From assembly GCA_002747955.1 (NCBI GenBank), contig PDQZ01000003.1, positions 1 through 39,273 of the forward strand: a stretch of DNA of 39,273 nt. Direction: 5' to 3'. Positions 7,263 through 8,941 of this stretch are shown here, piece by piece; within the stretch, counting starts at the first letter, position 1; each line of letters starts with the position of its first letter. Made by a program: the position numbers and the translations under genes. This DNA is from Candidatus Campbellbacteria bacterium (GTDB lineage Bacteria; Patescibacteriota; Minisyncoccia; Phycocordibacterales; GCA-2747955). The notes beneath the pieces are model-generated. The model saw only the letters and a list, made by a program, of their open reading frames with translations, was not told where the DNA came from and ran no database searches.

Positions 7263-7430
7263 TATAATATGGATACATGATATATTTAAGCATATTAGAA
7301 TAAAATAAAATATTTGAAAAACGGTTTTTCAAAAACTTTTGTTTTGTTATGCTTAATAAACTTTTATCAAAAAGTCTTTTTAGCATATCGTTACAGAAAA
7401 ACCGAACTAAAATCGGTTTTTCTTTTATTA
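7263..7430 (+). promoter_or_regulatory. Putative ribosome-dependent transcription attenuator (leader of ABC-F gene)
   Basis: TATAAT 7263-7268, uORF 7277-7303, mutually exclusive helices, terminator 7395-7423 plus T-run. Confidence 0.65.
7277..7303 (+). CDS. Putative leader peptide MIYLSILE
   Basis: ATG ATA TAT TTA AGC ATA TTA GAA TAA, 8 nt after TATAAT; overlaps one arm of a 9-bp helix. Confidence 0.45.
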   Translation: MIYLSILE

Positions 7431-7459
7431 TAAACTTTTATTAACAATAAAGTAAAAAT

Positions 7460-8941
7460 ATGCATAAAAATATTATTAAACTCAAAAATATTTCAAAACA
7501 ATATAATGATGAAATAAAACTTCTAGAAAATATTTCATTTTCAGTTGCAAATTCTGAAAAAATCGGACTGGTGGGAAACAATGGAAGCGGGAAAACAACT
7601 CTTTTAAAAATTATGGCAGGTCTAGAAAAGCCTGATCAAGGAAGTATTGAAATTAAAAAAGGTTTTAAAATTTCTTATTTAAGTCAAAAAATAGATTCTC
7701 AAAAAAGCATTTTTGAATTTTTAAACCTAGGCAAAAATTTCAAAAAAGCCCAAAAGCTTTTTTTAGAATTAAGTTTAGAAAAATTAAACACAGATTTAAA
7801 AATCAACACTTTATCAGGTGGAGAAAAAACAAAAGTCGGGCTTATAAAAATTATTTTGGAAAACAACCCCATTGTATTTTTAGACGAACCTACAAACAAT
7901 TTAGACAAAGAAAGTATTTTGTTTTTAGAAAAATATATTTTAAATTCAAAACAAACTTTCTTGATAGTTTCTCACAATCGTTCTTTTTTGGACAACACAG
8001 TTGAAAAAATATTTTTTCAAGACAGTTTTATAAATGAATTTAAAATTTATTCTGGAAATTATTCAGATTTTGTTCAAACTTTTGAAAGTCAAAAGCAAAG
8101 ACAAAAGATTTTGTATTTTCAAAATCAAAAACAAAAAAGAAACATTCAAAAAGAAATTCAAAGAGCAACTCAAAAAACAAAATTAGACAAAAAGAAAGAT
8201 TATTCAAAAGACAATGACAAATACATAAACTTCAACATCACTCAATCAGTTCAGAAGAAAATGGCAAATACTCTCAAAGCCAAAAAAACAAAACTCCAAA
8301 GATTTGAAGAAAAAGAAAACTTTAAAGAAAAGAGATATTTTGACTTTGAGTTTAAAACAAATATTACCGCAAATGCTGTTTTAGATGTTTCTGGTTTATA
8401 CAAAGAATTTGGAAACAAAAAAATCGGTCCAGTTTCATTTTATGTTCAAAAGAAAGACAGAGTTTTTCTAGATGGAAAAAACGGAAGTGGAAAAACAACT
8501 ATTTTGAAAATGATTTTGGGTCAAATTCAAAAAAGTTCAGGAGAAGTTAAGTTTTTTCCAAAAACCAAAACAGCTTATTTGTCTCAATCTTTAAACCAAA
8601 ATCAAGAACAGATTGTTTTTGACTTTTTGGAAAGGCAAAGTCACAAAAGTAAAACAGAAATCATCAATATCTTAGAAAAAATCGGAATTGATTTTGAAAT
8701 TGTTAAAAACAAAATCAAAGAACTCTCAGAAGGTCAAAAGTTAAAAGTTTTTATCGCAGATGTTGTGCTTTCAGATTACAATTTGTTGATTTTAGATGAG
8801 CCAACAAACAATATTGATTTGGAAGTTTTAGAAAAATTTGAACAAGCACTTGTTGAATATAATGGTTCTATAATTTTTACAAGCCACGACAAATATTTTA
8901 TTCAAAAACTAAAACCAAACAAAACAATTTTAATTCATTAA
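7460..8941 (+). CDS. ABC-F family ATPase (ribosome-associated, possible ribosome-protection type)
   Basis: Two NBDs (GNNGSGKTT/LSGGEK/LDEPTNN; GKNGSGKTT/LSEGQK/LDEPTNN), no TM domain, long charged linker. Confidence 0.9.
   Translation: MHKNIIKLKNISKQYNDEIKLLENISFSVANSEKIGLVGNNGSGKTTLLKIMAGLEKPDQGSIEIKKGFKISYLSQKIDSQKSIFEFLNLGKNFKKAQKLFLELSLEKLNTDLKINTLSGGEKTKVGLIKIILENNPIVFLDEPTNNLDKESILFLEKYILNSKQTFLIVSHNRSFLDNTVEKIFFQDSFINEFKIYSGNYSDFVQTFESQKQRQKILYFQNQKQKRNIQKEIQRATQKTKLDKKKDYSKDNDKYINFNITQSVQKKMANTLKAKKTKLQRFEEKENFKEKRYFDFEFKTNITANAVLDVSGLYKEFGNKKIGPVSFYVQKKDRVFLDGKNGSGKTTILKMILGQIQKSSGEVKFFPKTKTAYLSQSLNQNQEQIVFDFLERQSHKSKTEIINILEKIGIDFEIVKNKIKELSEGQKLKVFIADVVLSDYNLLILDEPTNNIDLEVLEKFEQALVEYNGSIIFTSHDKYFIQKLKPNKTILIH

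Follow-up and report, generated by a model that had tools for sequence, protein, structure and literature searches.

A candidate ribosome-sensing transcription attenuator in the leader of an antibiotic-resistance-like ABC-F gene of a Candidatus Campbellbacteria bacterium

The gene coding for an ABC-F ATPase in a Candidatus Campbellbacteria bacterium is probably controlled by a ribosome-mediated transcription attenuator of the vmlR/cplR type. The DNA analyzed, referred to here as the window, is a stretch of 39,273 nt from contig PDQZ01000003.1 (GCA_002747955.1), and all coordinates are given on it. The gene is monocistronic, its product resembles antibiotic resistance (ARE) ABC-F proteins, and it is preceded by a leader RNA of 185 bases that combines a tiny upstream open reading frame (uORF), competing hairpins and a terminator (Table 1). 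Attenuation control is known in Bacillus and Clostridioides and has not been described for the ultrasmall bacteria of the candidate phyla radiation (CPR), also called Patescibacteria; in the present case the leader most likely turns the ABC-F gene on upon ribosome stalling. The novelty lies mainly in the host lineage and in the leaderless sensor, the three-state logic being already known from vmlR. The CPR accounts for a large share of bacterial diversity, and to our knowledge almost nothing is known of how its members regulate their genes.

Layout of the ABC-F leader

An earlier note on this DNA had placed a TATAAT box, a uORF, the pairings of an OFF fold, a terminator and the pairings of an ON fold upstream of the ABC-F gene, and re-reading of coordinates and sequence bore out all of these elements. 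The promoter scan added a -35 box, TTGCAA, to the TATAAT, which gives a promoter with 10 of 12 consensus matches (7241..7268). Judging from the usual 7-nt distance, transcription is predicted to start at about 7274-7276, leaving 1-3 nt ahead of the AUG of a putatively translated uORF of 8 codons without a Shine-Dalgarno (SD) sequence. The leader terminator, with DNA arms AGAAAAACCGA and TCGGTTTTTCT (7395-7423) followed by the U-run TTTATTAT, was recovered independently by a consensus scan that returned 7 terminator-like sites in 2.8 kb against 0.8 expected. The order is thus that of an attenuator, with a promoter and then a terminator upstream of the regulated gene, which starts at 7460. No promoter was called by the scan between the leader terminator and the ABC-F ATG, and the GNAT gene located upstream has its own terminator hairpins at 7152-7180 and 7200-7224; therefore, transcripts from the promoter at 7241 must pass the leader terminator to express the ABC-F gene. 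At the other end, a terminator behind the ABC-F gene makes the unit monocistronic. Rfam produced no matches in the whole window at gathering thresholds, and over the leader permissive thresholds (E up to 10) yielded chance-level matches only, so that the leader reaches the gathering score of no curated Rfam leader or riboswitch family.

The hairpin at 7200-7224, situated between the GNAT terminator and the leader promoter, is a 23-nt hairpin of about 87% G+C with a UUCG loop (TGCGCGCAGCCTTCGGCTGCGCGCG) in a genome of 30% G+C, and it may serve as an additional terminator, a bidirectional one or an insulator. A minus-strand ORF of 103 aa that crosses the leader (7075-7386) was judged spurious, as it matches no Pfam family and runs across the GNAT terminators.

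Mutually exclusive folds and their predicted response to a ribosome on the uORF

The leader folds with a z of -4.75, a stability that not one of 200 dinucleotide shuffles attained. The OFF fold of the earlier note turned out to be the computed minimum-energy structure of 7270-7462 (-37.7 kcal/mol). In this fold, TTAAGCATA (7286-7294), which lies within the uORF, is complementary to TATGCTTAA (7348-7356), and between them stands a 9-bp apical hairpin (7313-7333; TTTGAAAAA-CGG-TTTTTCAAA in DNA letters) that conceals the antiterminator strand (7322-7330), an exact copy of the core of the terminator 3' arm. In the ON fold, CGGTTTTTC (7322-7330) pairs with GAAAAACCG (7396-7404), TATGCT with AGCATA and ACTTTT with AAAAGT. 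As computed, the terminator, antiterminator and anti-antiterminator folds are mutually exclusive and the uORF overlaps the anti-antiterminator, as expected from an attenuator. Furthermore, the 9-mer CGGTTTTTC occurs three times on both strands of the 39-kb window, always in the leader, where 0.83 copies are expected, and none of 100 shuffles had three.

On the full-length leader with the uORF masked, the terminator stays in the minimum-energy fold and always wins thermodynamically, because, at -12.2 kcal/mol, it is compatible with the hairpins upstream. What counts for attenuation is the state before the terminator 3' arm exists, and therefore we computed the equilibrium folding of nascent RNA (7275-7405 or 7275-7410) with the uORF masked as it would be by a ribosome. 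Unmasked nascent RNA keeps the uORF stem and the apical hairpin, with a probability of 0.75 for the apical hairpin and 0.17 for the antiterminator. Masking up to 7292, the footprint of a ribosome at the start codon, raises the antiterminator probability to 0.81-0.88, and longer footprints bring it to 0.95-0.98. At the same time, pairing of the terminator 5' arm with upstream sequence increases from 0.23 to 0.72-0.84. Among 400 shuffles of the middle region, in which the uORF and the terminator arm were kept, one showed the same change in sequestration (0.23 to 0.72); among 400 in which everything upstream was shuffled, two did. The ON fold proposed earlier thus appears as a flip in nascent RNA upon uORF masking, but is absent from the full-length leader at equilibrium. 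These controls also bear on whether the hairpins could be a chance arrangement in A+T-rich intergenic DNA with no regulatory role. Low-complexity A/U runs do pair promiscuously, but the fold z, the rarity of the switch behavior among shuffles (2 of 400 at most), the confinement of the three 9-mer copies to the leader and the leaders of the same build found in relatives make such an accident highly improbable.

According to the proposed mechanism, transcription would start at about 7275 and the RNA would begin almost directly with the AUG of the uORF. In the OFF state, the uORF would be translated and then vacated, so that its 3' half and the A-rich tail (7286-7310) could pair with 7337-7356. 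The resulting long stem, whose energy is -18.1 kcal/mol for the whole of 7286-7356, would lock the apical hairpin and bury CGGUUUUUC; the terminator would then form and RNA polymerase would halt in the U-run about 30 nt ahead of the ABC-F start. In the ON state, a ribosome would be held on the uORF, either further in or at the start codon, as lincosamides, pleuromutilins and streptogramin A, which target the peptidyl transferase center (PTC), do on the 3-4-codon uORFs of vmlR, cplR and lsaA. With the outer stem blocked in this way, the 9-bp apical hairpin, worth only -3.6 kcal/mol alone, would lose to the 9-bp antiterminator CGGUUUUUC:GAAAAACCG with its three G-C pairs, braced by UAUGCU/AGCAUA and ACUUUU/AAAAGU. 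The 5' arm of the terminator would therefore be occupied before its 3' arm is made, and polymerase would read into the ABC-F gene.

Table 1. Features of the ABC-F leader and transcription unit, with the evidence on which each call is based
Feature	Position	Strand	Details and basis
Sigma-70-type promoter	7241..7268	+	-35 TTGCAA 7241-7246, 16-nt spacer, -10 TATAAT 7263-7268
uORF MIYLSILE, near-leaderless, proposed ribosome sensor	ATG 7277 to TAA 7303	+	ATG ATA TAT TTA AGC ATA TTA GAA TAA
5' strand of anti-antiterminator stem	7286..7310	+	uORF codons 4-8 and A-rich tail; pairs with 7337-7356; minimum-energy and centroid folds
Apical hairpin UUUGAAAAA-CGG-UUUUUCAAA	7313..7333	+	5' arm conceals the antiterminator strand; computed fold
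Antiterminator strand CGGUUUUUC	7322..7330	+	Pairs with 7396-7404 (GAAAAACCG)
3' strand of anti-antiterminator stem (ACUUUUGUUUUGUUAUGCUUAA)	7337..7356	+	Minimum-energy fold; includes the most conserved T-rich block, TTTGTTTT
ON-state helper helices UAUGCU (7348-7353)/AGCAUA (7382-7387), around hairpin ACUUUU/AAAAGU (7360-7375)	7348..7387	+	Minimum-energy fold of uORF-masked nascent RNA
Intrinsic terminator, 11-bp stem AGAAAAACCGA/UCGGUUUUUCU, 7-nt loop (7395-7423), then UUUAUUAU	7395..7431	+	Terminator scan and energies
TAAAGT, possible weak -10 of leaderless type (caveat, outside the switch)	7448..7453	+	6 nt 5' of the ABC-F ATG; sequence
ABC-F ATPase, 493 aa	7460..8941	+	Pfam, NCBIfam, PDB, AlphaFold2, Foldseek
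Terminator of the ABC-F gene, 16-bp stem	8969..9003	+	Scan

Leaders of related ABC-F genes

The nearest ABC-F proteins are only 40-45% identical to that of the window (489-502 aa), and the contigs of relatives were fetched for leader comparison. In four relatives of this set the leader is built like that of the window, and in three of these the uORF begins with Met-Ile. In loci L016 (uORF MILLA) and L015 (MIRFL), the uORF starts inside the 5' arm of a long-range stem of 16-19 bp whose 3' arm is followed by a U-run. Here, a ribosome sitting on the uORF would by itself block the stem. When the L016 uORF was masked, sequestration of the 5' arm of a further terminator, a canonical one, rose from 0.14 to 0.62-0.67. 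L101/L102 have the uORF MILIY in a long stem, followed by a separate terminator. Additionally, L106 shows a near-leaderless uORF of 10 codons (MKIKFLNKRK) in which TGTATAAT, 8 nt and then ATG reproduce the spacing of the window; an early stem pairs this uORF with distal sequence, and CTGGTTTTTTC is an upstream copy of the terminator 3' arm. The masking test showed no clear switch in L106 and L101; in L106 the antiterminator wins even when unmasked, though the early nascent RNA forms the uORF-containing stem. L017/L018 and L103-L105 have only a strong U-tailed hairpin close upstream of the gene, and in L017 a -10-like TGTTACAAT also lies between this hairpin and the ABC-F ATG.

The alignment of five leaders has a common block, GGTTTTT(T)C followed by TTTGTTTT, of which the GGTTTTT(T)C part is common to the window, L106, L016 and L015. 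Among the 106 fetched loci, the exact pattern of the block was found only in L016 and L106, both times within the leader. We speculate that the TTTGTTTT block may correspond to the TTNTTT NusG pause motif described for vmlR (PMC9226507). The orthologous leaders were too few and too divergent for a covariation test. A leader of the same build, the absence of which the earlier note would have taken as refutation, is present in L015, L016, L101/L102 and L106 but lacking in L014, L099 and L100, whose intergenic regions are short. As judged from these sequences, conservation of the leader appears to extend to its kind and to part of its sequence, and the leader is fast-evolving and not universal in the clade. 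Scans of a genome collection for close ABC-F relatives found nothing above 31% identity, and a metagenome scan with the clade alignment gave 80 loci, all at most 32% identical and reached through the generic pattern LDEPTNNL, which were useless for leader comparison. A further candidate, L007 (Moraniibacteriota), considered as a second ABC-F type in the lineage, was dropped, its match lying outside any long ORF.

These leaders also speak to the nature of the signal. A conditional terminator that senses something other than the ribosome (a protein, a small molecule, a tRNA or temperature), with an incidental uORF, would be served equally well by the alternative folds, as any factor blocking 7286-7310 would do; chance short ORFs are common in A+T-rich RNA, and the length and peptide of the uORF vary among the relatives. 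However, the stretch that must be covered for the fold to flip coincides exactly with the uORF, the AUG itself sits in the 5' arm of the stem in L015, L016 and L101, no Rfam family was matched even at permissive thresholds, and all characterised ARE-ABCF leaders use a uORF (PMC10201436). We consider a non-ribosomal signal unlikely, and a stalled ribosome is the signal favoured here.

With respect to coding capacity, a second ORF of 31 codons (MLNKLLSKSLFSISLQKNRTKIGFSFIINFY; 7349-7444) lies in the same frame as the uORF and spans the terminator, possibly by chance in T-rich sequence, and an ORF of 17 codons occupies the corresponding place in L016. In lmrC of Streptomyces, the functional uORF is one that overlaps the terminator (PMC8546547).

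A further observation concerns the genetic code of these relatives. Six of the loci (L014, L016, L017, L099, L103 and L105; G+C 21-27%) have in-frame TGA where other members have TGG-Trp, and in L014 one such TGA falls at a Trp of the sigma-70 motif YATWWIRQA. The possibility that the in-frame TGA at Trp marks them as Mollicutes was rejected: the nearest proteins to the L014 sigma-70 are from the CPR, with Campbellbacteria, Pacebacteria and Parcubacteria as nearest named homologues, and the window encodes FtsW/RodA. The sequences point to a lineage akin to Parcubacteria in which UGA is read as Trp (code 4) and not as Gly (code 25), of which a literature search found no report.

Leaderless gene starts in the host genome

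The CPR-like origin of the window suggested by the earlier note was confirmed by its arginyl-tRNA synthetase, the named neighbours of which are all from the CPR (Moranbacteria/Moraniibacteriota, Parcubacteria, Kaiserbacteria and Patescibacteria group; best identity 57%). The window has a G+C content of 30%, and the real genes contain no in-frame TGA, so that the standard genetic code applies. The motif TGNTANAAT-N6-ATG has 13 matches in the window against 0.2 expected, every one of them at a gene start. An extended -10 box, TGnTAnAAT, lies exactly 6 nt 5' of the ATG at most first genes (for instance 10395-10412, 23039-23056 and 35202-35219), and SD-like motifs are rare. This pattern suggests that most first genes in the window are leaderless; a literature search found no paper describing a TGnTAnAAT-N6-ATG leaderless habit for the CPR. 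As leaderless starts are the rule in this genome, a near-leaderless uORF 8 nt past the TATAAT fits the organism, though the 8-nt spacing itself is not enriched.

The same habit raises the question of whether the ABC-F gene could have its own weak leaderless promoter at TAAAGT (7448-7453), in which case the upstream promoter, structured RNA and terminator would constitute a separate small RNA or a transcriptional insulator. TAAAGT stands exactly 6 nt 5' of the ATG, the leaderless spacing of the genome; the nearby intergenic region 9039-9262 has a stand-alone promoter, structured RNA and terminator; and L017 carries its TGTTACAAT between hairpin and ATG. On the other hand, TAAAGT lacks the TG extension present in all 13 clear cases and was not called by the scan, the leader stays linked to the ABC-F clade across different genomes, and an insulator needs neither an antiterminator copy nor a uORF-bearing stem. 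This arrangement is improbable, about to the same degree as a non-ribosomal signal, compared with an attenuator through which the ABC-F gene is expressed.

The ABC-F protein

The protein has the features of the ABC-F class, with two ABC nucleotide-binding domains (NBDs; two Pfam ABC_tran matches, E 1.7e-49) and a linker in one chain and no transmembrane domain. The AlphaFold2 model (predicted local distance difference test 83.3) displays two NBDs joined by an alpha-helical hairpin linker at residues 201-280 (helices 201-242 and 251-280, with an 8-residue tip) and no C-terminal extension. The 41-residue distance from Q-loop to signature suggests that the NBD1 arm insertion of EttA-type proteins is absent.

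Its best NCBIfam model was NF000355, 'ribosomal protection-like ABC-F family protein', with 387.6 bits against a cut-off of 380, a marginal pass of only 7.6 bits. This model was matched by 15 of 15 clade members, and over the clade as a whole no other family reached so low a best E-value. The housekeeping models (EttA, Uup, YbiT-like and YheS-like) were all far under their cut-offs, with 251 against 599 bits for EttA, 220 against 900 for Uup and 226 against 762 for PRK15064. The named ARE models were also missed, namely Vga (272 against 725), Msr (261 against 680), Sal (241 against 725), Lsa (228 against 750), CplR (223 against 780) and OptrA (170 against 1450 bits), which indicates that the protein belongs to no named ARE family. 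The closest PDB sequence matches were VmlR2 (8buu, E 2.5e-67) and VmlR (6ha8). In phmmer, residues 3-485 aligned to VmlR2 6-497 and residues 2-491 to VmlR 7-482, each in one colinear stretch that includes the linker, or antibiotic resistance domain, and EttA aligned only NBD to NBD. Foldseek also gave VmlR2 as the top match (8buu_9, TM 0.80), followed by VgaA-LC, SalB, VmlR, PoxtA and also the housekeeping YbiT (TM 0.79), whose near-equal score means that the fold alone does not separate ARE from housekeeping ABC-Fs. The placement relies on the cut-offs of hidden Markov models and on PDB matches as a proxy for a phylogeny against ARE1-8, deep ABC-F branches being hard to resolve when sequences are few. 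On these measures, the protein did not group with EttA, Uup, YbiT or YheS, a grouping that the earlier note had named as refuting; it is best described as ARE-like, of the ribosomal-protection-like class, and may confer resistance.

A different function is conceivable, in which the attenuator senses ribosomes yet responds to translation stress in general, for instance a shortage of Ile/Leu-tRNA or faulty ribosome assembly, and the ABC-F is a housekeeping translation factor and not a drug resistance protein. Ile and Leu are indeed frequent in the uORFs (MIYLSILE, MILLA, MILIY), defects in ribosome assembly are a further inducer of vmlR (PMC9226507), the NCBI model is named merely 'ribosomal protection-like', and the ABC-F comparison was confined to 39 kb, where no second ABC-F could be sought. 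Nevertheless, a genome of 30% G+C uses Ile and Leu codons more than any others in any case, and the protein fits ARE models better than any housekeeping model, and we regard this explanation as slightly less probable still than a non-ribosomal signal or a separate ABC-F promoter. The interpretation retained is that of an ARE-like ABC-F induced by ribosome stalling.

Each computational test by which the earlier interpretation might have been refuted turned out in its favour. Several considerations weigh against the attenuator interpretation as a whole. Those already given are the persistence of the terminator on the masked full-length leader, the lack of a clear switch in L106 and L101, the relatives with no leader, the marginal score for NF000355 and the missed named ARE models. 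In addition, folding predictions are fragile for this RNA because it is 75% A+U, and the switch as modeled would depend on co-transcriptional timing, which is beyond an equilibrium computation. The 8-nt spacing between the -10 box and the uORF ATG, compared with the canonical 6 of the genome, occurs at chance frequency, and a short ORF that begins with ATG is not improbable by itself in A+T-rich sequence. Furthermore, TAAAGT at 7448-7453, which has no TG extension and was not called by the promoter scan, could act as an independent weak promoter and give attenuator-independent ABC-F expression. Lastly, none of the public sequencing runs searched contains the leader region.

Comparison with known attenuators and significance

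In B. subtilis vmlR, a Met-Ile-Asn uORF lies within the anti-antiterminator stem SL-1; lincomycin-stalled initiating ribosomes block the base of SL-1, the antiterminator forms and the intrinsic terminator SL-3 is bypassed, and induction is abolished by mutating the uORF start or its SD (PMC9226507). The leaders of cplR (MRI), vmlR2 (MK[L/Q]) and lsaA (MAGN) obey the same rule of uORF-driven attenuation, which is regarded in the field as general for ARE-ABCFs (PMC10201436), and lmrC is a variant of it (PMC8546547). The premise of the earlier note that uORF-controlled attenuation is established for resistance ABC-Fs (vmlR, lmo0919/vgaL) agrees with PMC9226507 and PMC10201436.

The vmlR leader (ARE2; Takada et al. 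2022, PMC9226507) is like that of the window in having a uORF in the anti-antiterminator stem, an antiterminator that forms (in the window, by prediction) when the ribosome is held and a terminator 5' of a monocistronic ABC-F gene, and VmlR and VmlR2 are the best solved relatives of the window protein. Unlike vmlR, the uORF of the window has 8 codons instead of 3, no SD and almost no leader, no convincing hairpin sequesters the start site in the manner of SL-4, leader sequence homology is not detectable (no Rfam match), and the host belongs to the CPR and not to Bacillota. The protein itself is about 30% identical to VmlR and lacks its C-terminal extension.

The leaders of C. difficile cplR and Listeria lmo0919/vgaL (ARE1; Obana et al. 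2023, PMC10201436), induced by ribosome stalling, have a 5' hairpin that sequesters a 3-codon uORF (MRI) followed by a U-tailed terminator, a two-hairpin design that L015 and L016, with the uORF start in a hairpin arm, resemble most closely. The terminator of cplR also sequesters the SD of the main gene (translational attenuation), whereas the window organism has no SD to sequester, and its leader, unlike cplR, adds a separate copy of the antiterminator.

The proposed use of a leaderless short ORF at the mRNA 5' end as ribosome sensor is shared with the mycobacterial polycysteine attenuators (bioRxiv 10.1101/834739), which, unlike the window leader, sense Cys-tRNA supply and control cysteine genes, and are unrelated in sequence, organism and regulated gene. 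Similarly, in the msrD/mef leader MsrDL and the erm leader peptides (PMC10314930), drug-stalled ribosomes on a leader ORF remodel the downstream RNA and induce a resistance gene; unlike the present case they need a specific arrest peptide and a macrolide in the exit tunnel, and erm control is mainly translational. No macrolide-arrest peptide motif is evident in MIYLSILE.

A more specific proposal, to which we give less credence than to the attenuator itself and which we offer tentatively, is that a CPR-specific subfamily of ARE-like ABC-Fs of about 490 aa, outside the named families, would be switched on through a leaderless-uORF attenuator: a 70S ribosome would load at the nascent 5' end, and its arrest by PTC-targeting antibiotics from hosts or neighbours would be read as antitermination. 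If true, no inducible circuit responding to antibiotics would have been described in Patescibacteria before it, and the leader would be among the first cis-regulatory RNAs described there. In this regard, a CPR resistome survey reports no ABC-F genes (PMC8651080), and a literature search on ABC-F proteins in the CPR found no relevant paper.

If the attenuator holds, vmlR-type logic would not be confined to Bacillota and Actinomycetota but would extend to an organism whose translation starts without SD sequences and mostly on leaderless mRNAs. It would also imply that these reduced cells, dependent on a host, encounter ribosome-targeting antibiotics frequently enough for an inducible defence to be retained. 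Even as merely another case of a known class, it would have value for annotation, as ARE-like ABC-Fs in CPR genomes would be worth inspecting for such leaders. At about 190 nt, the leader is also compact enough to be tested as a unit in reporter assays.

Additional features of the window

Several other observations were made along the window. A 115-aa ORF on the minus strand (22637-22984), which looks Fur-like by eye and has a canonical leaderless promoter, fell below the 120-aa cut-off of the ORF listing. The window also encodes, at 33964-35067 (minus strand), the GTPase YchF, a reported regulator of leaderless mRNA translation. PheS (105-884) has only 259 aa and covers profile positions 56-322, and PheT (896-2881) lacks about the first 150 profile positions; these shortened aminoacyl-tRNA synthetase subunits are in line with genome reduction. 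The terminator hairpins behind three different genes (4238, 7162 and, on the minus strand, 18293) have the common core GGCCTTGCC, which is not significant (11 of 100 shuffles). Lastly, the intergenic region 9039-9262 may encode an unknown small RNA. It begins with a perfect consensus promoter, TTGACA-16-TGaTATAAT (9039-9066), followed by an RNA of about 190 nt that has no Rfam match and folds at -67.2 kcal/mol (z -10.2) into three hairpins, namely a GC-rich UUCG hairpin, a 17-bp hairpin at 9155-9217 and a terminator at 9227-9249, after which a second promoter is found at 9271-9300.

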